A stretch of 36,449 bases of DNA, taken from the IMG/VR virus record IMGVR_UViG_2541047954_000009; one strand, written 5' to 3'. The stretch comes from a virus. Lineage: Duplodnaviria; Heunggongvirae; Uroviricota; Caudoviricetes. This document shows, piece by piece, positions 698-34,659 of the stretch (its first letter is position 1; each line of letters begins with the position of its first letter). The notes under the pieces were generated by a model. The model searched no databases and was not told where the DNA came from. It worked only from the letters and a program-made list of their open reading frames with translations. A program made the position numbers and the translations under genes.

Positions 698-1060
698 GGG
701 GCTGATTCTGGATTCGACGGGATTTGCGAAACCCAAGGTGCATGCCGAGGGGCGGTTGGCCTCGTAAAAAGCCGCAAAAAATAGTCGCAAACGACGAAAA
801 CTACGCTTTAGCAGCTTAATAACCTGCTTAGAGCCCTCTCTCCCTAGCCTCCGCTCTTAGGACGGGGATCAAGAGAGGTCAAACCCAAAAGAGATCGCGT
901 GGAAGCCCTGCCTGGGGTTGAAGCGTTAAAACTTAATCAGGCTAGTTTGTTAGTGGCGTGTCCGTCCGCAGCTGGCAAGCGAATGTAAAGACTGACTAAG
1001 CATGTAGTACCGAGGATGTAGGAATTTCGGACGCGGGTTCAACTCCCGCCAGCTCCACCA
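698..1060 (+). ncRNA. ssrA: tmRNA (transfer-messenger RNA), 363 nt
   Basis: Begins GGGGCTGATTCTGGATTCGACGG, contains the tag-coding segment gcaaacgacgaaaactacgctttagcagcttaa (ANDENYALAA stop), and ends with the tRNA-like ...GGTTCAACTCCCGCCAGCTCCACCA; matches E. coli ssrA as remembered. Confidence 0.97.
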
Positions 1061-8817: not shown

Positions 8818-8892
8818 AAGGCAGTCTCTCCGGTTGTAGAGGGGGTCTGCCTATGTTCTGGTTGATACTCGCAGGGTGCACGCGATGGGGTT

Positions 8893-8910
8893 TGTATGGG
8901 AAATGGCACA
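8893..8910. promoter_or_regulatory. Candidate Ogr-dependent late promoter element (TGT-N12-ACA dyad) upstream of FI
   Basis: TGTATGGGAAATGGCACA, about 85 nt upstream of the FI start codon; P2 late promoters are known to carry a TGT-N12-ACA dyad upstream of the -35 region. Confidence 0.5.
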
Positions 8911-8951
8911 ACGACGGGGTGAAAAAATCCCCGCAGGCGCGGGGCAGGAAT

Positions 8952-9554
8952 TTAAAATTCTGGTAGTTCGGGCCAGGCAATATCAGGAGCAGTGCTGATA
9001 TCTGTTGCCGTCACTGCGTCGATGTAGTCAAGAACAGCATTAAGTTTTACTGTTTCTGCATCAGTTAATTTTCGTCCGGCCCGTAATTTCAGTTGAATCA
9101 AACTAACGGAAGCCATTGCAGTATCAATCAGTGACCGACGCTGTGTTTCTGCCGCTTCTACTGCGGCGCGATGTTGTATTTCAGTATCCGTCACCCATTT
9201 TTCACCATCCCATTTATCATATGGCGTTAACGGGGCGATATTGGTTGTATTTTCAGGGTAATCACCCGGATTTGTGATTTCTTTGGCATCTCCCGTTTCG
9301 GTGCTATAGACAGTTTCACCGCGATGGTCTGGCACATATTCCCATGAGTTTAAATCCGCAGAGCGGCAGATGGCATAACCAGCTTTATATGTTCCTGGTG
9401 CATCTAAACAGGAACATGCCGGAATACCGACACCAACAGCAAGATATTCAGTTGATGTGGAAATATATTCTCGTGTTTCACCATTATAATTATAGACAGT
9501 AATATCCCCCGCCTTCGTGGCAATAAACTCGCCATTTAATACGGCATTATCCAT
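8952..9554 (-). CDS. G: Tail fiber assembly protein (gpG-like)
   Basis: 200-aa ORF immediately downstream of H (1-nt overlap); composition and position typical of P2-family tail fiber assembly proteins. Confidence 0.8.
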   Translation of the reverse strand: MDNAVLNGEFIATKAGDITVYNYNGETREYISTSTEYLAVGVGIPACSCLDAPGTYKAGYAICRSADLNSWEYVPDHRGETVYSTETGDAKEITNPGDYPENTTNIAPLTPYDKWDGEKWVTDTEIQHRAAVEAAETQRRSLIDTAMASVSLIQLKLRAGRKLTDAETVKLNAVLDYIDAVTATDISTAPDIAWPELPEF

Positions 9555-11290
9555 TATGCAGCCCTCACTATATAGTTAAATGCAATATTTCGCGCACGTG
9601 TTTCCGTTGATGTTCTGGCAACACGTGAGGCATCAAAATAATAATTCGCCTGTTTATATGTACCACCTGTCGCAATTGATGCGAGATTTGGTGTCAATGT
9701 TGAAGAGGTAAATGCGCCGACAGTATTATTATTTGGCCCCGTGGTCATATCCAAAAAGCTACCTGTAATATTTTGCAGCGTATCGCTCTGAGCACTCAAT
9801 AACGCTCGCCCACTGTCCACTCCACGCCCGTCATCCCAGCCACGAATAAACTCGCCACGAAGATCTGGTACTTTTCCTGATGGATATGCTGTAGCAAGGC
9901 GGGGGTATTTCACCTTATCAAAGGCAGCACCATTGCATTTCAACCAGCCTGTCGGCGGAGTGGAAGAAGGCCACGGAACAGGGACACCTACAGGTAATGC
10001 TGAACCTTCTCCCAAACCAAGGTACGCGAGAAGACCGGCAACATTCTTTCCACTTAAACTGGTAAGCGTATTGTCCAGTGGTTGTTTGCCCGCCAGCGCA
10101 TTAAGCATTGTCGTGGCAAAGTTCGGATCATTCCCCAGCGCCGCCGCCAGTTCGTTCAGTGTATCCAGTGCCGCAGGAGCAGAGCCCACCATTGCCGCAA
10201 TTGCCGATTTCACAAAAGCCGTGGTGGCAATCTGTGTATTGTTGGTCGACTGTGCCGCTGTAGGTGCTGTTGGTGTTCCGGTGAGTGCCGGACTCGACAG
10301 TGGCGCTTTCAGTGCCAGCGCATTGTTAATGGTGGTACTGAATTTCGGGTCATTATTAATGGCTGCGGCTATTTCTTTCAGCGTGTCCAGCGTGGCGGGC
10401 GCGCCATTAATCAGGGCTTTCTGTGCCGCCTGAACAAACGCCGTAGTGGCAATCTGTGTATTGTTGACCGACTGCGCCGCCGTGGGGGCTGTTGGCGTTC
10501 CGGTGAGTGCCGGACTCGACAACGGTGCTTTTAGTGCCAGCACATTGTTAATGGTGGTACTGAAATTCGGATCATTGTTAATGGCTGCGGCTATTTCTTT
10601 CAGCGTGTCCAGCGTGGCTGGCGCACCATTAATAAGGGCCGTCAGTGCCGCCTGTACAAACGCGGTGGTCGCAACCTGCGTGGTATTATTCCCCGCCGCT
10701 GGCGTTGGCGCTTTGGGGGTTCCGGTAAATGTCGGGCTGGCTTTTTGCGCGTACTGTGAATGTGGGTCCTGTGCAGCAAGATGTTTTGCCATCAGGTCAT
10801 CCACGTACACCTTCAGCTCCAGTACCTTGTCATCCACATACTTGCGGGTTGCCAGCACTACGGCAGGGTCGATTTTCAGGGTGATATTGTCCGTGCTGCT
10901 GGTAATCAGCACCATGCGCACGGTCTGGGTACGCCCGCTGCCTTCAGCCAGTTGCGGCTTATAGCTTTCCGGGCAGTTGCCCACGGCAATCAATGCCCCG
11001 GACTCATCAAACAGGCCCACTTCACGTATCCACCAACCGCCCTCGTTTTCAGGGATCACCTGTTCAGCAATAATCTGGCTACTGTTCTGCGGGTCGATAT
11101 AAAGCATATTCAACGCAGCCCGGCGTTTCTCATTTACCAGTGCCGTCTGCTTTGCGTCCGGCGTTGGTAATGTTCCGCCGCCATCGCCTACCGCCATATG
11201 GGTAATTTTTAACGGCACACCGATCGCGGCGGCGCTGGCAAGTTTCGCCGCGCCAATATCCGTCAGCAGGGTATAAAATTTTGTGCTCAT
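9554..11290 (-). CDS. H: Tail fiber protein H (578 aa) with internal tandem repeats
   Basis: N-terminus (MSTKFYTLLTDIGAAKLASAAAIGVPLKITHMAVGDGGG...) resembles P2 gpH; the central region holds about 2.5 copies of a 74-aa repeat (ALINGAPATLDTLKEIAAAINNDP...TQIATTAFV). Confidence 0.9.
   Translation of the reverse strand: MSTKFYTLLTDIGAAKLASAAAIGVPLKITHMAVGDGGGTLPTPDAKQTALVNEKRRAALNMLYIDPQNSSQIIAEQVIPENEGGWWIREVGLFDESGALIAVGNCPESYKPQLAEGSGRTQTVRMVLITSSTDNITLKIDPAVVLATRKYVDDKVLELKVYVDDLMAKHLAAQDPHSQYAQKASPTFTGTPKAPTPAAGNNTTQVATTAFVQAALTALINGAPATLDTLKEIAAAINNDPNFSTTINNVLALKAPLSSPALTGTPTAPTAAQSVNNTQIATTAFVQAAQKALINGAPATLDTLKEIAAAINNDPKFSTTINNALALKAPLSSPALTGTPTAPTAAQSTNNTQIATTAFVKSAIAAMVGSAPAALDTLNELAAALGNDPNFATTMLNALAGKQPLDNTLTSLSGKNVAGLLAYLGLGEGSALPVGVPVPWPSSTPPTGWLKCNGAAFDKVKYPRLATAYPSGKVPDLRGEFIRGWDDGRGVDSGRALLSAQSDTLQNITGSFLDMTTGPNNNTVGAFTSSTLTPNLASIATGGTYKQANYYFDASRVARTSTETRARNIAFNYIVRAA
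10224..10667. repeat. Two tandem, about 90% identical 222-bp repeat units inside tail fiber gene H (degenerate copies flank them)
   Basis: Unit 1 (10224-10445) and unit 2 (10446-10667) both begin gtggcaatctgtgtattgttg and align along their length. Confidence 0.85.
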
Positions 11291-13139: not shown

Positions 13140-13714
13140 ACCGGGCCTCCAGTTGTATCGCCGCCTTTCAGGACGCCAGTATGCTGATGCGCATCAACCA
13201 CGATCCCGTTAGAACTCATCGCTCCGCCGCCCTGGGTAACGCCACCATTGATCACCACTTCGCTGTTAATGCGCGTGCGGTCAGCCTCCAGTACAAACTC
13301 ACTGGTTTTCATGGTGATGTTGTCAGCGGCCTCAATGACCATTGATTTGATGCCCCTGACATACCAGCGCCCGGTGGCGGGTTCATATTCAAACCAGCCA
13401 CCGTCAGGATGTTCTGTCACGCAGGCGTCCGCCGACGTCGACGGTGGTGCGAACTGATTCGAATAGACAGCGGGCAGCGCAAAGGCAGTCTCCAGATTGC
13501 CGCCCAGACTCAGCAGCACCACCTGCTCACCTTCTGATGGTTTCCACCATGTGCGGGCATTACCCGCGCGCAGCGTCAGCCAGTTAATCCAGTTAGTTTC
13601 AAGGTCGCCCGTTTTCACCCGGCAAAGCCAGTTTGTCCTGTCCACTTCGGTGACTACCCCAGTGCGGATCAGGTTGGTGATAAGGCGCATGATTTCGGTT
13701 AATTGTGCGTTCAT
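13136..13714 (-). CDS. V: Baseplate spike protein V
   Basis: 192-aa ORF resembling P2 gpV; first gene of the V-W-J-I-H-G block. Confidence 0.88.
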   Translation of the reverse strand: MNAQLTEIMRLITNLIRTGVVTEVDRTNWLCRVKTGDLETNWINWLTLRAGNARTWWKPSEGEQVVLLSLGGNLETAFALPAVYSNQFAPPSTSADACVTEHPDGGWFEYEPATGRWYVRGIKSMVIEAADNITMKTSEFVLEADRTRINSEVVINGGVTQGGGAMSSNGIVVDAHQHTGVLKGGDTTGGPV

Positions 13715-13760
13715 AGGGAAAGGTTGCCATCAGGGGAAGAAAGGCGGCAGTGCTGCAACT

Positions 13761-13778
13761 TGTATCAGTGCTGATACA
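13761..13778. promoter_or_regulatory. Candidate Ogr-dependent late promoter element (perfect TGT-N12-ACA palindrome) upstream of V
   Basis: TGTATCAGTGCTGATACA is a perfect 18-bp palindrome in the short S-V intergenic region. Confidence 0.55.
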
Positions 13779-13782
13779 AAAA

Positions 13783-14229
13783 TCACCCCGCCAGCCATTG
13801 CAGAATCATGTCGCGGGTCATTGCCTCAACATCATCATTTACACCCAGAAGGCGACGCTCTGCGTAACGGACCTCCGGTCCTTTGCGGCTGACGCGATCA
13901 CGTAAGCCGTAGTGATGAACACGGGCAATGCGCTGTACCTTGCCTTCAAACTGCACGCTGGCAGAGTCGGCGCTGGCGGCAGTTTTCAGGTATTTTGTGG
14001 TGCGCAGCTTTGTAAACATCTGACGTTTGATGCGCCCCTTTTTGCTGCGTGCTGTTACCCTGCGCGGCTCATAACTGCTGCCATCAGGATTGCGCTGCAT
14101 CCTGATGTTCTGCTGCTGTGTCCGGCGCAGTTCCTGCGCCAGCTGGCGCATCATGCGGCTTCTTGCGGCTGGCTCCAGATTCGCCAATAATGCACTCAGC
14201 CAGTTGTCCACCTTCTGCAGTTCAGCCAA
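13783..14229 (-). CDS. S: Tail completion protein S
   Basis: 148-aa ORF resembling P2 gpS. Confidence 0.85.
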   Translation of the reverse strand: MAELQKVDNWLSALLANLEPAARSRMMRQLAQELRRTQQQNIRMQRNPDGSSYEPRRVTARSKKGRIKRQMFTKLRTTKYLKTAASADSASVQFEGKVQRIARVHHYGLRDRVSRKGPEVRYAERRLLGVNDDVEAMTRDMILQWLAG

Positions 14230-19737: not shown

Positions 19738-21504
19738 ATGAACACCACACTGACACCCGCAGATCTCGATCCCCGTCGGCAGGCCATGCTGCTGTACTTT
19801 CAGGGATACCGCGTAGCCCGCATTGCTGAAATGCTGGGCGAGAAAGTTGCAACCGTTCACAGCTGGAAAAAACGCGACAAGTGGGGTGACTATGGGCCGC
19901 TGGATCAGATGCAGCTCACCACCACCGCACGCTACTGCCAGCTCATCATGAAGGAGCACAAAGAAGGGAAAGATTTCAAAGAGATTGACCTGCTGGCGCG
20001 CCAGTCGGAGCGCCACGCGCGGATCGGCAAGTTTAACAATGGCGGCAACGAAGCTGACTTAAACCCTAACGTCGCCAACCGCAACAAAGGCCCGCGCCGT
20101 CAGCCGGAAAAGAATGTCTTCACCGATGAACAGATTGAGAAGCTGGAAGAAATCTTCCATTCCTCCATGTTCAACTACCAGCGCCACTGGTGGGAAGCCG
20201 GAAAAACCAACCGCATCCGCAACCTGCTGAAGTCACGCCAGATCGGCGCGACCTTTTACTTTGCCCGTGAAGCCCTGATTGACGCCCTGCTTACCGGACG
20301 TAACCAGATTTTCCTTTCCGCCAGTAAGGCACAGGCCCACGTCTTTAAGCAGTACATCATCGACTTCGCCAAAGAAGTGGATGTGGAACTGAAAGGCGAT
20401 CCGATGGTGCTTCCTAACGGGGCCACGCTTTACTTCCTCGGCACCAATGCCCGCACGGCTCAGAGTTACCACGGCAACCTGTATCTGGATGAATATTTCT
20501 GGATACCAAAATTCCAGGAGCTGCGCAAAGTAGCTTCCGGTATGGCTATCCACAAAAAATGGCGGCAGACCTATTTTTCCACGCCATCCAGCCTGACACA
20601 CAGTGCTTATCCGTTCTGGTCCGGTGCGCTGTTCAACCGTGGGCGCAACAAAGCTGACAAGGTGGACATCGACCTGTCCCACAGCAATCTGGCCCCCGGC
20701 CTGCTGTGCGCAGACGGGCAATACCGCCAGATAGTCACCGTGGAAGATGCGGTGCGCGGCGGCTGTAACCTGTTCGACCTCGACCAGCTACGCATGGAGT
20801 ACAGCCCGGACGAATACCAGAACCTGCTGATGTGCGAGTTCGTGGACGATCTCGCGTCCGTGTTCCCGCTCAGCGAACTGCAGGCGTGCATGGTGGACAG
20901 TTGGGAAGTCTGGACCGACTTTCATGCACTGGCCCTGCGCCCGTTTGGCTGGCGCGAGGTGTGGATCGGTTATGACCCGGCAAAAGGTACGCAGAACGGC
21001 GACAGTGCCGGATGCGTGGTGGTGGCTCCGCCAGCCGTGCCGGGCGGTAAGTTCCGTATTCTTGAGCGTCACCAGTGGCGCGGGATGGACTTCCGCGCCC
21101 AGGCTGACGCCATCAAAAAACTTACCGAACAGTACAACGTGACTTATATCGGTATCGACTCAACCGGCGTTGGTCACGGGGTTTACGAGAACGTGAAAGC
21201 GTTCTTTCCTGCCGTCCGGGAGTTTGTCTACAACCCCAATGTTAAAAACGCCCTGGTACTCAAGGCCTACGACATTATCAGCCACCGCCGTCTGGAGTTT
21301 GACGCCGGACACACCGACATAGCGCAGTCATTCATAGCAATCCGGCGCGCCACCACCGCGAGCGGCAACCGCCCAACCTATGAAGCCAGCCGCAGCGAAG
21401 AAGCCAGCCACGCCGATCTGGCCTGGGCAACGATGCACGCACTGTTTAACGAACCGCTGCAGGGCGAATCCGCCAATACCAGCAATATTGTGGAGATTTT
21501 TTGA
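19738..21504 (+). CDS. P: Terminase large (ATPase) subunit P (588 aa)
   Basis: Resembles P2 gpP over its full length, including the ATPase core (KSRQIGATFYF...NLYLDEYFW). Confidence 0.93.
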   Translation: MNTTLTPADLDPRRQAMLLYFQGYRVARIAEMLGEKVATVHSWKKRDKWGDYGPLDQMQLTTTARYCQLIMKEHKEGKDFKEIDLLARQSERHARIGKFNNGGNEADLNPNVANRNKGPRRQPEKNVFTDEQIEKLEEIFHSSMFNYQRHWWEAGKTNRIRNLLKSRQIGATFYFAREALIDALLTGRNQIFLSASKAQAHVFKQYIIDFAKEVDVELKGDPMVLPNGATLYFLGTNARTAQSYHGNLYLDEYFWIPKFQELRKVASGMAIHKKWRQTYFSTPSSLTHSAYPFWSGALFNRGRNKADKVDIDLSHSNLAPGLLCADGQYRQIVTVEDAVRGGCNLFDLDQLRMEYSPDEYQNLLMCEFVDDLASVFPLSELQACMVDSWEVWTDFHALALRPFGWREVWIGYDPAKGTQNGDSAGCVVVAPPAVPGGKFRILERHQWRGMDFRAQADAIKKLTEQYNVTYIGIDSTGVGHGVYENVKAFFPAVREFVYNPNVKNALVLKAYDIISHRRLEFDAGHTDIAQSFIAIRRATTASGNRPTYEASRSEEASHADLAWATMHALFNEPLQGESANTSNIVEIF

Positions 21505-22211
21505 TGCCCCCAATCCCAACTAACCTCATGACTATCGCGGGACTTCCGGTGGATAGCTTTTTCTTTGCTTACCAGTATGAGTGGAACACTGGCCCAAAGA
21601 GTAGAAACCGTGTACTCACAAAAATGCGCCAGGCAGGCGCGGATTTCTTTTTTTCCTATGAAGCCCTGAACGATGCACTGCATACCGGGCGTAACCAGAT
21701 TTTCCTCTGCTGCAGCACAGCATCTGCGCAGGCAATCAAAGCCTATGTATCAGCATTCTTAAGCCAGGCCGCAGCTTATACGCACACTGGAAAAATAAAA
21801 TCAGGCAAAAGTCATCTGGAGCTTTCGAATGGTGCAGTAATTTATTTTACCGACCTCCGCAGTCTCACCTCCGCACTCAGTGGAAATGTTTACGTGTCAG
21901 AGTATGCCTGGAGTGAATCACCGAGAAATATGATTGCCATCGCTAAAGGGATTTCTATGCACGCACACCACCACGCCACCTACTACACCACTCCCAGCCC
22001 TAACCCAGAGGCACGGCAGGAATATAAAAAGCTATGCAGAAACAACAGCGTAACCAGCATGGTGTTCACCGCAGATGACGCAGCAGCATCTGGAGCAATG
22101 TTGTTTACTGATAACTGGCTGAACGATATGAAAAAAGAATTATCAGAAGAGGACTGGAAAATGCTGTTTATGTGCGAATGGCCTCTCGCTAGCAAGGAAC
22201 TGGCAGAATGA
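21504..22211 (+). CDS. Terminase ATPase-domain paralog (truncated, degenerate catalytic motifs), inserted between P and Q
   Basis: 235-aa ORF that aligns by eye to gpP residues about 145-385 of the same prophage (FAYQYEWNTGPKSRNRVLTKMRQAGADFFFSYEALNDALHTGRNQIFL versus FNYQRHWWEAGKTNRIRNLLKSRQIGATFYFAREALIDALLTGRNQIFL), with substitutions at the conserved Thr (to Asp) and Walker-B-like Asp (to Ser); start ATG overlaps the P stop (TGATG) and its stop overlaps the Q start (ATGA). Confidence 0.7.
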   Translation: MPPIPTNLMTIAGLPVDSFFFAYQYEWNTGPKSRNRVLTKMRQAGADFFFSYEALNDALHTGRNQIFLCCSTASAQAIKAYVSAFLSQAAAYTHTGKIKSGKSHLELSNGAVIYFTDLRSLTSALSGNVYVSEYAWSESPRNMIAIAKGISMHAHHHATYYTTPSPNPEARQEYKKLCRNNSVTSMVFTADDAAASGAMLFTDNWLNDMKKELSEEDWKMLFMCEWPLASKELAE

Positions 22212-23239
22212 GCAAACGTAAAAACACCAAGCAGGTAACAGTTGGTCACGACACAAAACCAAGCAACGGCCCAACGGCTGAGGCTTTCAGCTTTGGTGAT
22301 CCCATCCCCGTGCTGGACCGCCGCGAACTGCTGGACTATGTGGAATGCGTACAGATGGATCGCTGGTATGAGCCGCCCGTCAGCTTTAATGGACTGGCGC
22401 GCACCTTCCGCGCCGCCGTGCATCACAGTTCCCCGATTGCAGTAAAGTGCAACATTCTGACCAGTACCTATATCCCTCATCCGCTGCTTAGCCAGCAGGC
22501 TTTTTCGCGTTTTGTGCAGGACTATCTGGTATTTGGTAACGCCTACCTGGAGAAACGCACGAACCGCTTTGGTGAAGTTATCGCCCTTGAGCCAGCTTTG
22601 GCAAAATACACCCGGCGCGGATTAGACCTGGATACCTACTGGTTTGTGCAAGACGGTATGACAGCCCAGCCGTATCAGTTCACGAAAGGCAACATTTTTC
22701 ATCTGATGGAACCGGACATCAACCAGGAGATCTACGGCCTGCCAGGTTATCTCTCTGCCATCCCGTCAGCCCTGCTCAACGAGTCCGCCACACTGTTCCG
22801 CCGTAAGTATTACATCAACGGCAGCCATGCAGGTTTCATCATGTACATGACCGATGCCGCACAGAACCAAGAAGATGTGAACAACCTCCGCAACGCAATG
22901 AAAAGCGCCAAAGGGCCAGGCAACTTCCGCAACCTGTTTATGTACTCTCCTAACGGCAAAAAGGACGGGCTTCAGATTATCCCGTTGTCAGAAGTCGCGG
23001 CGAAGGATGAGTTTCTGAATATCAAGAACGTGAGCCGGGACGACATGATGGCGGCACACCGTGTGCCGCCGCAAATGATGGGGATAATGCCTAATAATGT
23101 TGGGGGGTTTGGGGATGTGGAGAAGGCTAGTAAGGTTTTTGTGATAAATGAATTAATTCCTTTGCAAAAACGATTTATGGAAATAAACGCATGGCTCGGG
23201 GAGAAACTTATAGAATTTTCTCCATATGAGCTTAACTAA
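22208..23239 (+). CDS. Q: Portal protein Q
   Basis: 343-aa ORF resembling P2 gpQ (AVHHSSPI, LNESATLFRRKYY, IPLSEVA segments). Confidence 0.93.
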   Translation: MSKRKNTKQVTVGHDTKPSNGPTAEAFSFGDPIPVLDRRELLDYVECVQMDRWYEPPVSFNGLARTFRAAVHHSSPIAVKCNILTSTYIPHPLLSQQAFSRFVQDYLVFGNAYLEKRTNRFGEVIALEPALAKYTRRGLDLDTYWFVQDGMTAQPYQFTKGNIFHLMEPDINQEIYGLPGYLSAIPSALLNESATLFRRKYYINGSHAGFIMYMTDAAQNQEDVNNLRNAMKSAKGPGNFRNLFMYSPNGKKDGLQIIPLSEVAAKDEFLNIKNVSRDDMMAAHRVPPQMMGIMPNNVGGFGDVEKASKVFVINELIPLQKRFMEINAWLGEKLIEFSPYELN

Positions 23240-23288
23240 AATATTAGTTGCCAGTACCGTATTGTTGCTACTGGCAATTGCAATAAAA

Positions 23289-25625
23289 TTACAAATATGT
23301 ATTGCTATGTAGAGATGTGTTTATTCCATCTTCTATCTCAATTTTTGACGAAGCATACTCATCATTCGCACTATCATCAATATCAAACTCATCTTGTAGA
23401 TGAAGTGACTCATTTAACGGTCTATAAAACTCACCCATCATCATTTTGTAATGGGCAGTATGCTCACTACACTCAAATATCTTCTGAAAAACAATTAAAT
23501 ATTTTTGCACAGACTCCGTATCTAAACTCATATAAAGATCATCACCTGCAAAATGAGAACCATCATTAATCCATGACACTAAAGATTTAAATATGATTTT
23601 TTCATCACCATAAAAATGACACTCAAGCTTCCTAATATCAATCCCACCTAATATCTTAAAGTAATTCTCCAAAATCCTTCGCATTGTATTTTGTATAGTA
23701 TTATTATTAATATCTGTTCTTCTCAATTCGCACCAGAGCAAATCATAAGACGTTTTTATTGGGTTTGATTCGCACTTTTCAAGATATGAGACCTTCCCTT
23801 TTTTCCTTACAATCCAAAAAGTCTCCTCTTTCATTGCTTGATTACCGGATCTTTTAGTATTAAAAGTCAACTCTTTATGAAAATAAATATTATGCGTAAG
23901 GAATATAATTTGCTTAATATTTCCTTCATCCTTACGAACATCCTCCATTAAATCTTTAATCAACGAACTTACAATAAACAGAATATCACTATCTAAACTT
24001 GAAATTGGATCATCAAATACTACAACACGATCATCTAAAACACCTGATGCATTATCACTCCCTCTAACAAGGCTATAAAAATACAAAAAAGTGATAAATG
24101 TCTTTTCTCCCTCGCTAAGGGTTGTACGAGCATTATCTCCACTATCTCTCACTATCATATAATGCTTTTTATCTTCGGAGGGTTTTAAGTAAAAATTTTT
24201 GAAGCCATAAGAATCCAGAATCTTGTTAATTTTTGTAATAGTTGGAAGAGTACTGGTTTTATTAGACTCAATTGCCTCAATAGCCGAAGCATTTAACATT
24301 AACTTCTTTTTGTCTTCCTCTAACCCAGATTTAAGTCCTTGTAACTTCCTATTAAATTTATCAGATTCGCTACGGTAAGAAGTTATTTCAGACTTTAACT
24401 CCACCTTTACGATATATGCCCATATCTGATTAGAAAGATTACTAGCCTCTACCTTTCTATTACTGTGTATTTTGTTATTATTATCTATCAATAGATTTGA
24501 ATCATTCAAAAAAGAAATAAAATCATCAACAACTTCACTTAAGTCACTAAAATGAACTGATTCACTTAAAAAATTGCGTTTATTTTTTGCCAATTCAAAA
24601 TTCTTGTTTAATTCAGATAATACTATCTTAGCCTTATCCTCAAATACTTCATAATTTATGAATGGAGATTTAATCGCCCTTATATCATCTATCGCCTGCA
24701 AGATATTATTAAGTTGATGTTCATATTGTAAAACCAATGCATCGATTTCTCTTTTTTTTAACTCATATGTTTTATCAAAATATGATGATAGATTATAAAA
24801 TATATTATCATTTACATCCTGCTGGCAAAATGGGCACTTGGGATTAGATTTACTGAAATATGTTAAACCTTCCTTAACCCAATCACTGTTATTGAGCATT
24901 GTAATTAAGTCTGAAACACTAACGTCTTTTTTCCCTAGAATACGCTCACTCCAAATCTCCCTACTCAAAATATCATCTATCCTATTGAAGGATGGAATTG
25001 TAATTGATACATGTGATGTCAATTCAGTAGAAAAAACAATTTTTGCTTTCTCAATTAGCTCTGCTATTGAGCAAACTTCTGATGTGTTATTTTCATACTC
25101 AGCCAACACTCTAGCTTTAAATTTTTCACTACTATTCCTTAATCCCTCAAAAGCCTTTGAGAACACATTATCATGTTTTACTTTTTGCTTCCAACATGAA
25201 TCTTTAAAAGATTTTTCATGGTCTTCGATTTGTTTAACAACGCCTAATATATTATCACCACCATCTATTAGCTTTTCCTTTGCTATAATAGATTCTATTA
25301 GCTTATTTTTTTCTTCTTCAAGAGATATTAGTTTCTCTTCATCCTCCTTAAGATCGCTACCAAGGGTAAATACACCTTTAATTTTATCTTGACTAAAATT
25401 TCTTTCAACAAAATCTTTATTATATACGTAGCTTATTAAAGATATATTATTTTTCCATTTAATCGGACATGTTGGATATTGTTCAGGGTCATTAATAATT
25501 TTACTTATAGTTGTTTTACCTGCACCATTAGCTCCATATAAATAGTTAAATTTAGAAAGCCCATGTAAAAGCTGAGTAGGGCCATTATATGAGCCTACTT
25601 TGTCAATAACTACCTCTTCAATCAT
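23289..25625 (-). CDS. ABC-type P-loop ATPase of the PrrC/RloC-like AAA_13 kind (778 aa); candidate anti-phage/abortive-infection protein
   Basis: Walker A YGANGAGKTT (aa 30-39, nt 25509-25535), CPFC zinc-hook-like motif (aa 264-267, nt 24825-24836) in a Lys/Glu-rich coiled-coil-like insert, ABC signature-like LSEGEK (aa 503-508), Walker B VVVFDDP (aa 534-540, nt 24006-24026), H-loop THN (aa 577-579), and a C-terminal region with RRILENYF and SH. Markedly AT-rich, between Q and the cos site. Confidence 0.75.
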   Translation of the reverse strand: MIEEVVIDKVGSYNGPTQLLHGLSKFNYLYGANGAGKTTISKIINDPEQYPTCPIKWKNNISLISYVYNKDFVERNFSQDKIKGVFTLGSDLKEDEEKLISLEEEKNKLIESIIAKEKLIDGGDNILGVVKQIEDHEKSFKDSCWKQKVKHDNVFSKAFEGLRNSSEKFKARVLAEYENNTSEVCSIAELIEKAKIVFSTELTSHVSITIPSFNRIDDILSREIWSERILGKKDVSVSDLITMLNNSDWVKEGLTYFSKSNPKCPFCQQDVNDNIFYNLSSYFDKTYELKKREIDALVLQYEHQLNNILQAIDDIRAIKSPFINYEVFEDKAKIVLSELNKNFELAKNKRNFLSESVHFSDLSEVVDDFISFLNDSNLLIDNNNKIHSNRKVEASNLSNQIWAYIVKVELKSEITSYRSESDKFNRKLQGLKSGLEEDKKKLMLNASAIEAIESNKTSTLPTITKINKILDSYGFKNFYLKPSEDKKHYMIVRDSGDNARTTLSEGEKTFITFLYFYSLVRGSDNASGVLDDRVVVFDDPISSLDSDILFIVSSLIKDLMEDVRKDEGNIKQIIFLTHNIYFHKELTFNTKRSGNQAMKEETFWIVRKKGKVSYLEKCESNPIKTSYDLLWCELRRTDINNNTIQNTMRRILENYFKILGGIDIRKLECHFYGDEKIIFKSLVSWINDGSHFAGDDLYMSLDTESVQKYLIVFQKIFECSEHTAHYKMMMGEFYRPLNESLHLQDEFDIDDSANDEYASSKIEIEDGINTSLHSNTYL

Positions 25626-25758
25626 CCTCTAATCCTCAAAAAACAGATTAATCCTATCAAATCAATGATAATAGAAGACATTACTTACCTAATTACAAGG
25701 TGATCATTTATACAGCTGTGAATAAATCAGGCTAATCATCTATTTGTCATAACGCGCG

Positions 25759-25777
25759 CTCGTATCCCCGCCACGCC
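25759..25777 (-). other. Candidate cos site (cohesive-end region)
   Basis: Minus-strand GGCGTGGCGGGGATACGAG matches the first 13 nt of the 19-nt cohesive-end sequence I recall for 186 (GGCGTGGCGGGGAAAGCAT) and is close to that of P2. Confidence 0.5.
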
Positions 25778-25820
25778 TGCCCGCTTTATGTAGTGGTTTT
25801 CATGCACCTGCATGATCTAC

Positions 25821-25846
25821 GCAAAAGCCCGCCAGTTCTGGCGGGC
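25821..25846 (-). terminator. Rho-independent terminator downstream of the dinI-like gene
   Basis: GC-rich hairpin GCCCGCCAG/CTGGCGGGC followed on the minus strand by CTTTTGC. Confidence 0.55.
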
Positions 25847-25981
25847 CTTAGCAAAAACGATCCTCAAACGATCATGCGATCTCATGCGGCATAGACATGC
25901 ACTACAGAGCTAACGCCTCGCAAGGGCTCGTTGTTCAACCTTGCTGACGCCAGAAGCAAGTTCAGACGCCAGCAACGTTTC

Positions 25982-26215
25982 TTAATGCAGCCAGCTGTCG
26001 TCTTCCCACACCTTCTGCATAATTTTCATCACTTGTTTTCTTTCTTCGTCCAGTTGCAGTCCGGTTAGTTCCACACCGTTAGAGCTACCTTTGCGAATGC
26101 GAATTACCGTTTTGGGATACAGGGGGCGCAGATTGCGGTAAAGCTCGGATTCAAGGGCGTCCAGGGTAGACTGGCTAATCTTCTGCTCTTTATCGATCAT
26201 TATTTCAATGCGCAT
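25982..26215 (-). CDS. dinI: DinI-like protein (77 aa)
   Basis: MRIEIMIDKEQKISQSTLDALESELYRNLRPLYPKTVIRIRKG...QKVWEDDSWL resembles the DinI family; start at ATG 26215 with RBS GAGGTGA, not the longer ORF start at 26287. Confidence 0.8.
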   Translation of the reverse strand: MRIEIMIDKEQKISQSTLDALESELYRNLRPLYPKTVIRIRKGSSNGVELTGLQLDEERKQVMKIMQKVWEDDSWLH

Positions 26216-26225
26216 AAAAGTCACC

Positions 26226-26414
26226 TCAGCTGATGACATCCATTGAGCGGTTGTATTCGTGGGTTCTGATTTTTGCCATGAGTTCATCAGTCAATTCAGA
26301 AACCCACTGCAGAGCCAGCCCCTTCTCTTCATCACTACACTCACTAGCCGCTACAAGCTTAAGAAAAAAATCAATGCGCTGGAGCTTCAAAGACTCCAAA
26401 AAATAGTCCTGCAT
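26226..26414 (-). CDS. Small SOS-controlled protein, putative Tum-like antirepressor (62 aa)
   Basis: ORF starting MQDYFLESLKLQRIDFFLK with a strong RBS (AGGAGG) and a LexA box about 40 bp upstream; position relative to dinI, A and cos matches the 186 tum locus as remembered. The six-frame ORF start at 26516 lies upstream of the promoter and is rejected. Confidence 0.5.
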   Translation of the reverse strand: MQDYFLESLKLQRIDFFLKLVAASECSDEEKGLALQWVSELTDELMAKIRTHEYNRSMDVIS

Positions 26415-26455
26415 CTTTCCTCCTATGACACCACACGCAATACTGTATGCATAAC

Positions 26456-26475
26456 CACTGTTTATATTTACAGTA
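26456..26475. promoter_or_regulatory. LexA (SOS) box overlapping a sigma70-like promoter for the tum-like/dinI-like operon
   Basis: CACTGTTTATATTTACAGTA fits CTGT-N8-ACAG (consensus TACTGTATATATATACAGTA); on the minus strand a TTTACA -35-like hexamer lies just upstream and a TATACT -10-like hexamer overlaps the box. Confidence 0.8.
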
Positions 26476-26567
26476 TATAATAATCTTACTGATGTAAAAC
26501 GTTTTTTTACGTTCATCAGCCTGATATGCCTGGTATTATTAAGAGCACGAATTGTTAACCCGCGTAA

Positions 26568-28982
26568 TTAATACAGGTTCCGCCACTGATCATCTTCCTG
26601 CAAACGCTGGTTCCGATAGAAGATACGCAGGCCTGCTCCTGACGGAATACTGCCTCCGCGAAGGAGTAAATCGACCTCTTTCTCGCTGCCATCAAATCCT
26701 CTGGACTTCAGCTCATACACGAGCTGCAGTCGCTGATGGTCTGTAATTCGCTGTTTGTAGTCTTTACGCCGTTTCGGTTTCACCAGGCGTAACCTTGCTG
26801 CCAGTTCCCGGCGCTCTTTTTTGCTCATACTGTGCAGGTAATCGTGCAACTCCTTGTCATCCATGCTGGTAATGTCCGTTCTGGGGTCCCCATCAGCTGA
26901 TTTATCTTTCTCCTGTTGGTTCAAATTTTCAGCAAGGGGACAGTTATTGCCACGAGTCCAAGGGGCGCAAGCGCCCTGGTCGGCTGCCGCCTCCTGAACG
27001 TCAACGGCCTTACGAACCATTTTCCACTTCACGGCATGAGTGCAGATTTTGCCCTCTGCAATGGGTGACCAGATGCCATAAATACGAATGCCGTGATCGC
27101 CATAGGCGGTCGGCTCTTCGTTGATTTCATAAGCGGTTCTGATGAGGTGATATTTGCGGGGGACCAGTACGCCGCCCTGCTTCATGATGTAGGTGGCAAA
27201 ACAACCAGCATCAGCTGCAGCCAGAATGGCATCAAGGCGCGGGTTATCCAGTACCGGCGCACCTGCTTTTTTGTCACCCTGTTGCCTTGCCGCCTGACCA
27301 GCCAGCAATCGCAGTTCACGGTAAGCCTGACGCCCCGGAATGCCAAAGAAGCGGAATTGCTGAACACGATGCAGAGACGCCCAGGCATTAACGTATTCAG
27401 CGTTATCACGCAGAGATTTACCCGTTTCCTTGCTGATCTCGCCAGCCAGACCACGCCCGTCAATGTTCTTACTGATGTATTTCGCGATGTAGCTAGTCGG
27501 CGTTCCTTTGCGCGGGTTTATCAGCTCAGACTTAAAGCGTGGCCCCGTGTTATTACCCAGCTCCTCGCGGTCTTCACGAATGGCAAACTTACGCAACAAA
27601 GCAGTAATGGTGCGGCGATCTTTTTTGCGCATAAAACACAACAGGTGCCAGTGAACTGTACCGTCATGATGCGGCTCAGCCACCCGCACGCCATACCAGC
27701 GCAATCCGGCTTTGTGCATCGCCTTACGAAATGCAGCAAACATGCCGACCAGATAATCACTGCTTTGTCTTACCGTCGTATTTGTCCAGGTCGGGTTGGG
27801 CCTGCCGTTATTTAGCGTGGAATGGAAACGTGACGGACAGGTGATGGTGTAGAAAACGGCGCAGTCACCGCGCATTTCCGCGATAAGCTCCAGACCTTTA
27901 ACACAGGCCATCATCTCATTGCGGCGATGCGCAGGGTTGCTGCTGCTGGCGTTTACCACATCCTCCATGTCCAGCGTGTCGCCGTCTTCGTTCACCAGTT
28001 CATGAGAACGGAAAAACTCCAGCGACTTACGGCGCTGCTCACGTTTATGCATCACGGCTTCATAGCTGACATAGGGAGATGCTTTTTTGCTGACCAGGCA
28101 AACAGCACGCAACTGCTCTTCCCGCCATTCGCAACGCATCTTCCATAATTTCCGGTACCACCAATCGGCGCACAACATACGCGCCAGCGAACCCGGAATG
28201 AGTTCATAGGGCACGGGTTTACGGCGGTTTCTTTTCCGGCGGAGTTGCTCAAACGCAGGCGGTATGACATCCAGTCGCAGGGTTTCTGCTGCCACCTTTT
28301 CCCATGTCTTGCGGATTTCTTCTGGCTTAACGTCATCGGTGGCATACAAATCGCCACAAGCTGCATCAAGGCACATGCTCATATGCGCAGCAACAAGGGT
28401 GGACAGGCGTTTCACCTGATCCTGACTCATTTCAGGCAGAATCAGCAGGCCGTCCAGCCCTTCATGGCTTGCCATAAAGCGAAAAGAAGTGGATAGCTGA
28501 CTGTCGCGTACATGCTCCAGCCGTTCCAGACATGGCTTAATCGTCTCACGCAAATAGCGGGAATAAGCCTTTGGCCTGCCAAGGCTGCTGAAGTATTCAA
28601 TACGTTGCATCAGCGGCCTGCTGATATGGGAAGGCTGGGCGTTAACGTCTGCCAGAATGACCATGTCCGGGTTAAAACGCTGCTGCTCATGCGCCAACTT
28701 TGCCCGGCTAATGAGCTTATCCTGCTCCATTTCGCGCTGGACAGGATCACGGGATTCATTAAAGAAATAACGCTCCCAAACCTGATCACTCAGTGCCTCG
28801 CGGCGCAGTTGTTCCTGCTCGTTATCGGCAGCGTACAGAGTGATCAGGTTTGAAAGCGCAGAAACCGGCGCAACTTCCGCCGGGTCCAGATAAGGGTTAA
28901 TAGCCTTTTTCGGGCTGTTCCATGAGAATGCTGCGGCGGCCTCGTTAAAGCCGCTGCAGTTGTTCATATCAGCATGGCTCAT
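26568..28982 (-). CDS. A: Replication initiation protein A (rolling-circle endonuclease, 804 aa)
   Basis: Long ORF resembling the P2/186 gpA replication protein family as remembered; located in the early region upstream of the cos-proximal genes. Confidence 0.88.
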
Positions 28983-29836
28983 GCACGCACTCCGTACACG
29001 GCAGAACTATCCACGCCACGCGAAGGATCAAATCCCACCCAGCAGCGCGCCCCAGAAACAGCGATGATTTCTGTTGCAGATTTACTCTCGCCAGCCGACA
29101 CGCCGATGCTGCGTTTTGCCTTGATGTAGTGGTGAGTGAAATTTCGATACAGCGAACGGATCAGGGATGTGTCACTGTTAGAAACAATGACTGGATGACC
29201 TTCTGATGATCGATATTCAAGAACAGATGCCAGGTGATACTGGTCATCTTCAGTGAAGCCGTCAGTGTGATAGCCGGAAAACGTACCGTCATAAGGCGGA
29301 TCGCAATACACCACATCCCCCACCTGCAGCATCGCCAGCGTTTCATCAAAGCTGGCGCAGATAAACGTTGCTCGCTGGGCTTTCTCTGCAAATGCGCGAA
29401 TTTCTTTTTCAGGGAAATACGGATTTTTATAATTACCGTATGGAATGTTGAAATGCCCGCTCTTGTTATAACGACATAACCCACGGTAACCATGACGATT
29501 GAGATACAGGAAATATACCGCTTTCATGAAATCAGTAATTTCAGTGGAGTAATTAAACTCCTGCCTTATGTTGTAATAAGCCAACTCCCTGTTTGCTTCC
29601 TCAAATAAAGCTCTGGCACGAGATATAAACGCCTCGCAATCAGCAGCAACCTTTTTATAGAGGTTGATTAAATCAGGATTAATATCCGCAACAAGATAGC
29701 TGGGGTAATCCGTCTCCATCATCACAGCACAGGAACCCGCGAAAGGTTCAACCAGTCGCGGGCCAGCAGGAAGATGTTTTTTCAGTTCGGACATAATGGC
29801 AGTTTTATTACCCGCCCATTTCAGGATGGTACTCAT
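28979..29836 (-). CDS. dam: DNA adenine methyltransferase (Dam-like N6-adenine MTase)
   Basis: Resembles Dam from [15 protein letters not shown]...; contains the DPPY catalytic motif and AdoMet-binding FAGSCAV; start at ATG 29836 (RBS AGGAGG), not the upstream ORF start at 29908. Confidence 0.85.
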
Positions 29837-33990: not shown

Positions 33991-34659
33991 ATGAATAGCG
34001 AACTAGAGTTACTTATAAAAATATTATTCCCTTCCCTATCTGCCATTATATCCTTATTAGGGCTTAAAACAGGGTGGACTTATAAAAAAGACAAACTATT
34101 CACATCACGTAAAAACATTAGCGAATTTTCATATCAAATGTATAAAAGCAGTGAAGATCCGACCTTCAAAAAACTGGCGGAAGATTACGGCATTGCTGCA
34201 TTAACCAAAGATAACACATTGACAAAAAAACAAAGATTAATATTACTCAACACAACAAACCCCGTTAGCGATATAGATGATTATTCCAAATGTCAAAGTC
34301 TAATTTCCATTACCACCCATAAAGAAATATTCGCATGGAATAAAAAAAGATATAAATACAGCATATATAGAAAATTAATAAAAATTATAACAACTCTAAT
34401 TTACTTCATGGGCAGTCTCGTCGTAGCACTTCCTTTCAGTTATTCTGTTGTAGTAAGTGCTAAGATGATGGAGAAGATAAACCATCTAACTACTTGGCAA
34501 TACTTTGGTTTAAGCAGCTATTTTGTGGTATCGGGAGTAGCAATATGCTTTATCTGCCTAGATAAGCTCTCCAAGATTAAGATCGCCGAGAGATTAATCG
34601 TTTCAAATAGGCGTTTAGGCGACAAATGCAGTGGCGGCACTTTGGCGGCAGAAAGTTAA
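33991..34659 (+). CDS. AT-rich accessory membrane protein (222 aa) between int and attR
   Basis: ORF with an N-terminal hydrophobic segment (LLIKILFPSLSAIISLLGL) and two C-terminal hydrophobic helices (ITTLIYFMGSLVVALPFSYSVVV; FGLSSYFVVSGVAICFICL); AT-rich with a weak RBS; no recognisable family. Confidence 0.55.
   Translation: MNSELELLIKILFPSLSAIISLLGLKTGWTYKKDKLFTSRKNISEFSYQMYKSSEDPTFKKLAEDYGIAALTKDNTLTKKQRLILLNTTNPVSDIDDYSKCQSLISITTHKEIFAWNKKRYKYSIYRKLIKIITTLIYFMGSLVVALPFSYSVVVSAKMMEKINHLTTWQYFGLSSYFVVSGVAICFICLDKLSKIKIAERLIVSNRRLGDKCSGGTLAAES

Follow-up and report, generated by a model that had tools for sequence, protein, structure and literature searches.

A single-gene RloC-family cargo beside cos in a P2-like Escherichia coli prophage

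RloC proteins were defined by Davidov and Kaufmann through ABC ATPase motifs, a coiled-coil insert with a CXXC motif and the motif Arg-X3-Glu-X36-52-His, in which the His is often preceded by Ser (PMC2610378). ATP together with linear DNA activates the RloC nuclease, as do double-strand-break inducers in vivo (PMC3458546, PMC3874168), and the rationale offered for RloC is that phage tRNA-repair enzymes are expected to be unable to reverse the loss of the wobble nucleotide (PMC2610378). The proteins of Geobacillus kaustophilus (GkaRloC) and Acinetobacter baylyi ADP1 (AbaRloC, ACIAD0152) are single polypeptides of about 750-800 aa that stand alone, with no linked restriction-modification locus. 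PrrC of E. coli, linked to EcoprrI, has an ABC ATPase with a DDP-type Walker B and a C-terminal Arg/Glu/His nuclease, but it is about 400 aa long, lacks the coiled-coil/CxxC insert, is always found within a type Ic hsd locus and responds to the Stp peptide of phage T4. P2 itself carries Old beside cos, a single-gene abortive system combining an ABC ATPase with a nuclease, which has been reported to cut tRNA anticodon arms and to respond to DNA defects (PMC12445682; bioRxiv 10.64898/2026.07.10.737580). A defence hotspot between gpA and gpQ of P2-like phages was described by Rousset et al. in 2022 (PMC9122126). There, a single AAA_13 gene noted as 'RloC-like' is system 5, the fifth commonest with 420 occurrences (PMC9122126, Table S5B); no AAA_13 system was among those that Rousset et al. 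tested (PMC9122126). Prophage-borne ABC-HEPN proteins in E. coli had already been noted by Anantharaman et al. in 2013. The RloC family, the P2 gpA-gpQ hotspot and RloC-like AAA_13 cargo within it are all already known.

The window analysed here, a stretch of 36,449 nucleotides, derives from a P2-like (186-type) E. coli prophage integrated at ssrA. A first-pass annotation had placed a 778-aa ORF on the opposite strand between the end of Q (23239) and cos, and the ORF is present as described, in the following arrangement.

22208..23239, plus strand: portal gene Q, the conserved left-hand limit of the slot (ORF; 'phage portal protein' in NZ_LR890198)
23248..23277, no strand assigned: inverted repeat TTGCCAGTA-12 nt-TACTGGCAA between the stop codons of Q and the RloC-like gene, which converge here (read from the sequence)
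23289..25625, minus strand: RloC-like gene, 778 aa, ATG start, stop codon at 23289-23291 (ORF list)
25694..25715, minus strand: block CTGTATAAATGATCACCTTGTA, 68-89 nt ahead of the ATG, 21/22 nt kept in an Enterobacter relative (alignment)
25759..25777, minus strand: cos cohesive-end core GGCGTGGCGGGGATACGAG (minus-strand reading), right-hand limit of the cargo slot (alignment to P2 cosL)

The cos site was placed by eye and by alignment to P2 cosL: over the first 14 positions, GGCGTGGCGGGGATACGAG matches GGCGAGGCGGGGAAAGCAC of P2 at 13/14. The 19-mer of P2 cos was not found anywhere in the window at up to three mismatches, since the cohesive end diverges in its 3' half. Gene A spans 26568-28982, and the RloC-like gene thus lies between A and Q. 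A DinI-like gene, coding for an SOS modulator, is located just beyond cos. In phage P2, the interval from cosL to the Q stop measures 167 bp and has the terminator tQ as its sole content, so the P2 backbone is essentially empty at this slot, as the first reading had it. The inverted repeat is a possible bidirectional terminator; with a 12-nt loop it escaped our terminator scan, since the scan accepts loops of 3-8 nt only. The block upstream of the ATG is a candidate promoter region. A sigma-70 scan from the ATG to cos found no site above threshold, and the count of sigma-70 sites inside the AT-rich ORF equals the shuffle expectation. Neither restriction-modification nor hsd genes were found in the window, the neighbours of the RloC-like gene being phage genes, and the locus contains no SbcD/Mre11-like neighbour and no antitoxin-like partner.

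The earlier impression of an AT-rich gene in a GC-rich prophage is borne out by a GC content of 30.6% for the ORF compared to 52.1% for the remainder of the window. In 500-nt windows from 23501 to 25500, GC content is 0.29-0.32, whereas it reaches 0.51-0.59 in the adjacent late genes. In a profile search, Pfam AAA_13 matched the 778-aa protein with E 4.6e-164 over profile positions 2-713 of 713; a match of this strength across the whole profile means that the ORF and its motifs are no chance occurrence. The PADLOC PDC-S06 model PDLC04890 aligned end to end (E 3.2e-266, 883.6 bits; protein aa 1-733 with 1-725 of 732 model positions), which places the protein within the PDC-S06 candidate family. 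The PADLOC PrrC model gave a weaker match (E 5e-11, aa 459-700), and together with the AAA_13 result this upholds the proposed PrrC/RloC-like ABC ATPase. Homologues at 42-45% identity carry the JGI name 'wobble nucleotide-excising tRNase'. An NCBIfam search with the protein returned nothing above family cutoff, a PDB sequence search gave zero matches, and public records label it just 'AAA family ATPase'. We conclude that the ORF is an intact, single, horizontally acquired member of the RloC family.

All of the motifs that had been quoted for the protein (Walker A, CPFC, LSEGE, Walker B, THN, RRILE and SH) are present. Those of the ATPase and its insert are located as follows.

25512..25535, minus strand: Walker A GANGAGKT, aa 31-38, including K37 (sequence)
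24261..25352, minus strand: helical coiled-coil-like insert, aa 92-455 (364 aa), between the ATPase lobes (AF2 model)
24825..24836, minus strand: CPFC, aa 264-267, candidate zinc hook, close to the insert midpoint (273)
24105..24119, minus strand: ABC signature LSEGE, aa 503-507
23991..24026, minus strand: Walker B and D-loop VVVFDDPISSLD, aa 534-545 (sequence)
23889..23897, minus strand: H-loop/switch THN, aa 577-579, including H578

Conservation was scored over 104 family representatives, 33-62% identical, and over 70 closer homologues. The key residues of the ATPase, the CxxC and the nuclease are invariant in the 70 homologues and either invariant or at least 90% conserved in the 104 representatives. 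Invariant among the latter are G31, N33, G36 and K37 of Walker A, L503, S504, G506 and E507 of the signature, D538, D539, P540, S543 and D545 of the Walker B/D-loop, and H578 and N579 of the H-loop. The ABC motifs by which RloC is recognised are represented by K37, LSEGE, DD538-539, the D-loop SSLD (aa 542-545) and H578. When matched by published residue position, K37 corresponds to GkaRloC K44, whose mutation abolished nuclease activation (PMC3458546), and DD538-539 is the counterpart of GkaRloC D572.

In the AF2 model, the insert is made of long helices almost throughout. Its heptad periodicity is 0.381 versus 0.282 +/- 0.023 for shuffled sequence (z about 4), with the signal peaking at aa 272-350 and 392-455. 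A coiled-coil insert with a central CxxC distinguishes RloC from PrrC, and aa 92-455 with CPFC provide both; the position of CPFC corresponds to GkaRloC C288/C291 by published residue position. C264, P265 and C267 are invariant in proteins ranging from 24% to 100% identity, while cysteines C53 and C144 are not: C53 is absent from the Javan105 and Lachnospiraceae proteins, C144 from the ENT4 and Rousset system 5 proteins, and CPxC is kept in each of these. The lack of conservation of C53 and C144 ruled out a four-cysteine intramolecular zinc site (C53, C144, C264, C267). CPFC is a candidate zinc hook that may be apical as in Rad50; AF2 confidence around the CxxC is low (pLDDT 45-58), compared to a mean pLDDT of 79 for the 778-aa protein. 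The best PDB fold match of the predicted structure was Rad50 (E 9e-8), with further matches to SMC heads, Lamassu LmuB, retron PtuA and AriA, and the predicted ATPase head appears most Rad50-like. Structure prediction thereby recovered the Rad50-like architecture suggested at the first reading, with a Rad50-like head, the helical insert and the central CxxC. Rad50/SbcC and LmuB are the closest folds for the head and coiled coil, and Rad50 also has a CxxC zinc hook. However, neither has a fused nuclease, their partners Mre11/SbcD and LmuA being separate proteins, and the window protein resembles Rad50/SbcC in fold only, since it has an extra C-terminal domain.

The features of this C-terminal part are the following.

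23421..23768, minus strand: all-helical C-terminal domain, aa 620-735, predicted anticodon nuclease (AF2; PrrC model to aa 700)
23667..23681, minus strand: RRILE, with R649 and E653 of the predicted catalytic triad (RloC motif Arg-X3-Glu-X36-52-His)
23553..23558, minus strand: S690-H691, predicted catalytic His after Ser, 37 residues past E653
23292..23420, minus strand: acidic disordered tail, aa 736-778 (43 aa) (pLDDT <50; composition)

AF2 folds the C-terminal domain into seven helices (pLDDT 72-88). The Arg/Glu/His arrangement of PrrC and RloC, noticed at the outset, takes the form R649-x3-E653-x37-S690-H691, which falls within the published RloC spacing and constitutes the nuclease motif of the family. 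R649 is the same in all 104 representatives, and E653, S690 and H691 each reach at least 90% conservation there; S690 and H691 are invariant in the 70 closer homologues. R649/E653/H691 are collinear with GkaRloC R692/E696/H737 by published residue positions, and the R-x3-E...S-H residues are the catalytic ones in G. kaustophilus RloC. Solved structures include no significant fold relative of the domain, and no structure was found in the PDB for any PrrC/RloC nuclease domain. HEPN nuclease domains are four-helix up-down bundles with an Rx4-6H active-site motif; no Arg occurs 4-6 residues before H691, and hence the canonical motif is missing at that site. We infer from homology that this predicted domain is of the anticodon-nuclease type and would cleave tRNA. 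The tail that follows consists of 26% D/E and 2% K/R. It is present in P0007, shortened in P0017 and missing from homologues at about 43% identity, and it is specific to the enterobacterial P2-borne clade.

Among 5,426 complete E. coli genomes, the RloC-like gene occurs in 21 and its flanks in about 1,290. Since about 98% of the E. coli prophages with the same flanks, as well as phage P2, are without the gene, it is not a component of morphogenesis, an alternative that had been raised alongside the original proposal. Otherwise near-identical prophages differ by its presence or absence. In Enterobacter P2-like prophages, homologues at 62-64% identity occupy the same slot, and a further homologue, 51% identical, adjoins cos in a P4-like satellite. 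The same cos core is found directly upstream of the homologous gene at loci L001-L004, L007 and L012-L014 and at the P4-like L010. Elsewhere the slot holds other cargo: Klebsiella phage 4LV2017 has a retron there, and p13P477T-2 has a pseudogene of 558 aa. Deposited phage genomes yielded 9 records with relatives, all below 30% identity, which leaves prophages as the only known carriers of the clade. The RloC-like gene is variable anti-phage-type cargo of the cos-adjacent hotspot, and the cos region is the known variable defence hotspot that the first-pass annotation took it to be (PMC9122126). That annotation had also seen no partner gene, and none is conserved across the relatives' loci compared. 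Between P and Q lies a terminase-ATPase-like ORF of 236 aa that likewise occurs in 21 E. coli genomes, but it and the RloC-like gene are found together only in 2 (AP045805 and LR890198), and in the Enterobacter relatives P lies directly beside Q with no such ORF between them. A partner role for the 236-aa ORF was rejected, since it seldom co-occurs.

The likeness of the window protein to GkaRloC and AbaRloC was drawn from published motif positions and homologue names. It shares with them its size, its single polypeptide and its stand-alone gene. Unlike these proteins, its clade is enterobacterial, is borne by P2 and P4 elements beside cos and carries the 43-aa acidic tail. PrrC has the ATPase, Walker B type and nuclease residues in common with the window protein but is about half its size, and neither the hsd linkage nor the Stp trigger applies to the window gene; the 778-aa protein is a PrrC homologue, not a PrrC. 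Rousset system 5 and the AAA_13 protein of Enterobacter phage ENT4 belong to the same family, are likewise encoded by single genes in the gpA-gpQ hotspot and share CPFCQ, R-x3-E and S-H with the window protein, although they are just 24-25% identical to it. ENT4 has its gene on the A side of cos and the prophage analysed here on the Q side. Phage protein Javan105, labelled RloC, is 25% identical and has no S-H at the aligned position, which indicates that the RloC label spans heterogeneous proteins. PDC-S06 is a computational, single-gene phage defence candidate with no stated mechanism, and an E. coli PDC-S06 protein has been named solely as a likely true positive (bioRxiv 2025.01.08.631966). 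P2 Old is similar in organisation and position but has a Toprim effector, lacks a coiled-coil insert and in P2 is found to the A side of cos.

We consider it likely that the gene is RloC-family cargo of the cos-adjacent hotspot whose product is a DNA-end-triggered, wobble-excising tRNase that aborts infection. That the 778-aa protein cleaves tRNA, is triggered by DNA ends and protects against phage we infer by homology only; our literature search turned up no experimental work on either the protein or its clade. By analogy with GkaRloC and A. baylyi RloC, the protein would be present at a low level in the lysogen, where its own ATPase/zinc-hook switch would keep it inactive. DNA ends would arise once another phage superinfects, either through degradation of host DNA or through linear replication or packaging intermediates. 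The ATPase heads would bind these ends, and a single round of ATP hydrolysis would free the nuclease, which would then cut tRNA anticodon loops with RloC-type excision of the wobble nucleotide. Translation would halt and the infection abort, so that the lysogen population and the prophage would be protected.

An RloC-type ATPase-nuclease could also have a trigger or target unlike those of the Geobacillus and Acinetobacter enzymes. The trigger might be a phage protein, the loss of a type I restriction enzyme in trans or terminase/cos products of P2 or P4, and the target might be mRNA, rRNA or another set of tRNAs. The clade is distant from the characterised proteins, the nearest JGI-named RloC-type tRNases being those at 42-45% identity; its acidic tail could be regulatory or a DNA mimic; and in P2-like and P4-like elements the gene is without exception an immediate neighbour of cos. 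The related defence ABC ATPases PARIS AriA and PrrC respond to phage proteins and not to DNA (PMC9122126), and the substrates that RloC prefers vary by orthologue and differ in vitro and in vivo (PMC2610378, PMC3874168). However, every residue required for the RloC switch and nuclease is conserved, the window is without restriction-modification genes and the sequence gives no pointer to a specific alternative trigger, and we regard a different trigger or target as unlikely. We judge it quite unlikely that the enterobacterial clade, placed immediately downstream of cos and bearing the acidic tail, is a functionally distinct form of RloC specialised for P2/P4 conflicts. If it were, the tail could, for example, silence the enzyme, and a rival phage or satellite that packages from cos could trigger it by its terminase activity or its DNA ends, so that the protein would arbitrate helper-satellite or P2-P2 competition instead of sensing double-strand breaks in general.

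A stress or addiction function for the prophage or its host as the main benefit, in place of phage exclusion, with the protein acting as a translation brake that responds to DNA damage and modulates persistence or induction of the prophage, or imposing a cost when the element is lost, would fit the activation of the indigenous A. baylyi RloC by a double-strand-break inducer without phage, and both persistence and thwarted lytic prophage development have been discussed as RloC roles (PMC3874168). The DinI-like gene across cos would also be compatible with such a function. The other occupants of the slot, however, are validated or typical anti-phage systems (old/tin, retrons), the patchy distribution is typical of defence cargo and there is no antitoxin-like partner, all of which makes this function very unlikely. 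That the protein is instead a Rad50/SbcC-like DNA-processing or packaging accessory of the phage, with no nuclease toxin, is suggested by the Rad50 and SMC heads among its top fold matches and by its proximity to cos and the packaging genes. It is extremely improbable given the absence of the gene from P2 and most same-flank prophages, the lack of an Mre11/SbcD-type partner, the additional C-terminal domain with the PrrC/RloC triad, which Rad50 and SbcC do not have, and a GC content foreign to the phage backbone.

The first-pass annotation overrated the novelty of the locus, since Rousset system 5, the PADLOC PDC-S06 model and the study of Anantharaman et al. (2013) all came earlier. With the arrangement catalogued in 2022, the finding is correct but ordinary, and the bare label in the public records can be sharpened. 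Our literature search found no plaque assay in which a P2- or P4-hotspot gene of the RloC type had been tested, and a native-host test system for RloC was called missing by the original authors (PMC3458546). As an RloC native to an E. coli prophage, the protein would be a convenient model for the idea of a DNA-end-sensing, repair-defying tRNase in its native host.

Between portal gene Q and the cos site, the window carries an uninterrupted gene for a protein resembling RloC, a DNA-break-sensing ABC ATPase fused to a tRNA-cutting nuclease. The interval contains the following features:

23248-23277: inverted repeat of 9 bp, in the gap between Q and the ORF
23289-25625, minus strand: RloC-like ORF, 778 codons
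25759-25777: cos core, reverse complement GGCGTGGCGGGGATACGAG

Q ends at 23239 and is convergent with the ORF across a gap of 49 nt. The reverse complement of the cos core is identical to P2 cosL (GGCGAGGCGGGGAAAGCAC) at 13 of the first 14 positions, and the location between Q and cos proposed in the first-pass annotation was borne out. In P2, cosL and the Q stop are only 167 bp apart, with the terminator tQ alone between them; old and tin lie on the opposite side of cos. The ORF has a GC content of 30.6% compared to 52.1% in the rest of the window, confirming that an AT-rich gene sits in a GC-rich prophage; in 500-nt windows, GC is 0.29–0.32 inside the ORF and 0.51–0.59 in the flanking late genes. 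Upstream of the ATG, the E. coli and Enterobacter elements share a 22-nt block at 21 of 22 nt; no candidate passed in a promoter scan of this stretch.

Davidov and Kaufmann (PMC2610378) defined RloC by three features: ABC ATPase motifs like those of PrrC, a coiled-coil insert with CXXC at its centre, and a C-proximal Arg-X3-Glu-X36-52-His in which the His is often preceded by Ser. All three were found in the ORF protein, and the motifs quoted for it earlier all lie where they had been placed. Its layout, from the sequence and from an AF2 model, is:

aa 1-90: N-lobe (AF2)
K37, LSEGE 503-507, DD 538-539, SSLD 542-545, H578: ABC ATPase motifs (sequence)
aa 92-455: insert, nearly all helical, with low confidence around CxxC (AF2); CPFC at aa 264-267 (sequence)
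aa 460-600: C-lobe (AF2)
aa 626-733: C-terminal domain of seven helices (AF2)
R649-x3-E653-x37-S690-H691: nuclease motif (sequence)
aa 740-778: disordered acidic tail (AF2)

The key residues are collinear with the mutationally validated K44, C288/C291, D572, R692, E696 and H737 of GkaRloC, the Geobacillus kaustophilus enzyme, and none of them varies in 70 homologues with identities as low as 41%. Among 104 cluster representatives with 33–62% identity to the ORF protein, K37, C264-P-x-C267, L503, S504, G506, E507, D538-D539-P540, H578 and R649 are invariant, and E653, S690 and H691 are at least 90% conserved. The family comprises 1,119 representative clusters at E up to 1e-30, the best 150 of which are all collinear over residues 1–731. 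The earlier assignment to PrrC/RloC-like ABC ATPases was supported by Pfam AAA_13 (profile positions 2–713 of 713, residues 10–718, E 4.6e-164) and by the PADLOC PrrC model (residues 459–700, E 5e-11); the PADLOC candidate family PDC-S06 matched end to end (E 3.2e-266). An NCBIfam search gave nothing over cutoffs and a PDB sequence search matched no chain. The protein is named only 'AAA family ATPase' in public records, and several homologues at 42–45% identity carry the JGI name 'wobble nucleotide-excising tRNase'.

A protein of Streptococcus phage Javan105 (locus L016, 2923-5184; listed alongside locus L018, 1423-3705) is annotated as 'translation-disabling ACNase RloC'. It has just 25% identity to the window protein, and its alignment shows R-x3-D, no Ser-His at the position of S690-H691 and a 17-aa insertion in the C-domain. 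The active sites of database-labelled RloC proteins may therefore differ.

The full-length AF2 model had a mean pLDDT of 79, and its top PDB fold matches were Rad50 (7zr1_C, E 9e-8), SMC heads, Lamassu LmuB, retron PtuA and AriA. Heptad periodicity of the insert was 0.381 against 0.282 +/- 0.023 for shuffles, chiefly owing to the C-terminal arm. The helices, heptad signal and Rad50-like fold support the proposed coiled coil; around its candidate zinc hook, the CxxC, the model has low confidence. An intramolecular four-cysteine site made of the CxxC and two further conserved cysteines, C53 and C144, was rejected, as C53 and C144 do not co-vary with CxxC in distant relatives. CPxC itself is invariant across relatives from 24% to 100% identity. 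This conservation pattern fits a putative hook pairing two CxxC motifs between chains, and we infer an apical position for the CxxC. The acidic C-terminal tail (aa 736–778, window 23292-23420; 26% D/E, 2% K/R) is common to homologues at 62–67% identity and shorter in the P4-borne clade; members of the wider family, at about 43% identity, have none. The tail may serve in autoinhibition or mimic DNA.

The RloC-like gene is cargo. Of 5,426 complete E. coli genomes, 1,291 have the flanks of the 23000-26600 region, but only 21 have most of the region itself. Queried alone, the ORF was intact in 21 E. coli genomes (98–99.9% nucleotide identity, single-copy, chromosomal), truncated in 2 more and represented by a version of about 70% identity in 3. 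Deposited phage genomes have the flanks alone in common with this region and yielded no close homologue, the 9 records matched all being below 30% amino-acid identity. In Enterobacter P2-like prophages, homologues with 62–64% identity are found in precisely this slot, in the order cos, about 135 bp, gene, 54 bp, convergent portal gene. In a P4-like satellite (L010, 1030-3569; also L011), a 51% identical homologue, P0017, lies directly downstream of cos, between psu and int. P0017 has 114 cluster members in E. coli and Serratia and the same orientation to cos as in P2-like prophages. This arrangement is consistent with helper–satellite cargo exchange through cos, their only shared sequence.

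We compared window 25626-25981 with six other loci (L002-L004, L017, L019, L020). Other E. coli prophages that carry the RloC-like gene have a second, independent cargo slot across cos, on the A side, filled by a DUF2971 gene, by two hypothetical genes, or by a ComF-family gene together with one hypothetical gene. The P2 hotspot, the cos-adjacent gpA–gpQ defence locus, therefore has two sub-slots with cos between them. On the A side, P2 has old/tin and ENT4 an AAA_13 gene; the window has only a DinI-like and a 62-aa gene there. On the Q side, the window has the RloC-like gene, Klebsiella phage 4LV2017 a retron St85 system beside its portal gene, and p13P477T-2 a frameshifted 558-aa pseudogene.

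No conserved partner of the RloC-like gene was found, in line with the earlier view of a single-gene system. The sole candidate was:

21501-22211, plus strand: extra ORF of 236 aa, between terminase gene P and portal gene Q

It was rejected, since the two genes share 2 genomes while each occurs in 21. P and Q are directly adjacent in P2 and the Enterobacter relatives. The 236-aa product (Pfam Terminase_6N, E 5e-17; PHROG 3746, E 1e-85; no PADLOC match) is a stand-alone terminase ATPase domain without the nuclease domain, 32% identical to P residues 142–368. Its alleles, 76% to 100% identical, occur in 21 of 5,426 E. coli genomes independently of the RloC-like gene. Conceivably, it is a terminase decoy or a factor interfering with satellites or rival phages.

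The surrounding element is a P2-like (186-type) prophage, its layout confirmed by the annotation of a near-identical prophage in E. coli MINF_1D. At the left end of the window lies:

698-1060, plus strand: ssrA tmRNA gene (Rfam 295.8 bits; tag ANDENYALAA)

The prophage begins (ogr side) directly after ssrA, which is therefore its likely integration site; it contains no tRNA genes. By the MINF_1D annotation, a DNA adenine methylase gene (about 28979-29836, minus strand) lies directly upstream of replication gene A. The two prophages diverge most in the tail-fibre/invertible-segment region (8818-10450; 85–91% identity with gaps). MINF_1D has a 1.2-kb insertion that separates the virion morphogenesis gene from baseplate gene V and carries a DUF5677 gene on the opposite strand; the window (about 13704-13880) lacks it, so the lineage varies at this position too. 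At the prophage end, the integrase is immediately followed by an AT-rich 222-aa ORF (33991-34659, plus strand; about 32% GC), where MINF_1D has different sequence. Hydrophobic stretches in its product suggest a membrane protein. Searches of Pfam and PADLOC gave it no family, and it may be a further accessory (moron) gene.

Rousset et al. (2022) described the gpA–gpQ locus as a hotspot of defence genes, in which 18,150 loci showed 1,650 gene arrangements. In Table S5B of that study, system 5 is a lone AAA_13 gene, annotated 'RloC-like' and counted 420 times; the table of tested systems includes no AAA_13 system. Over the first 400 residues, the window protein and the system 5 representative share only 25% identity, and so the window protein belongs to a different clade of the same family. 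However, a PADLOC model is already fitted to this clade. ABC-HEPN proteins encoded by E. coli prophages were pointed out by Anantharaman et al. (2013), and Klaiman et al. (2012) mentioned an 'E. coli APECO1 RloC'. Because of these precedents, the finding is already known in kind. The literature searched contains no plaque assay, tRNA assay or structure for any P2/P4-borne RloC-like protein. We judge the initial reading, a PrrC/RloC-like defence candidate beside cos, to be correct: the gene is real, correctly interpreted and ordinary. It is probably an RloC-family, tRNA-targeting, abortive-infection cargo gene.

The architecture, conservation and mobility of the gene are directly observed, and its putative mechanism is transferred from characterised enzymes. 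Going by its title, work by Bitton et al. in 2015 reportedly concerns activation of the repair-defying RloC nuclease by T4-induced DNA breaks. The GkaRloC nuclease is silent until ATP is hydrolysed with linear, not circular, DNA; mutations in the hook uncouple the nuclease and make it hyperactive, and the wild type is inhibited by Zn (PMC2610378, PMC3458546). The indigenous RloC of A. baylyi is activated by a double-strand-break inducer and cleaves tRNA-Glu and tRNA-Gln without needing the host restriction system (PMC3874168). A functional parallel to the proposed role is Old, the ABC-ATPase nuclease that P2 itself carries at the same hotspot and that is reported to cut tRNA anticodon arms (PMC12445682; bioRxiv 10.64898/2026.07.10.737580). 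By analogy, the prophage would most likely provide its lysogen with a latent, DNA-end-sensing tRNase, which would halt translation when DNA is broken by a superinfecting phage.
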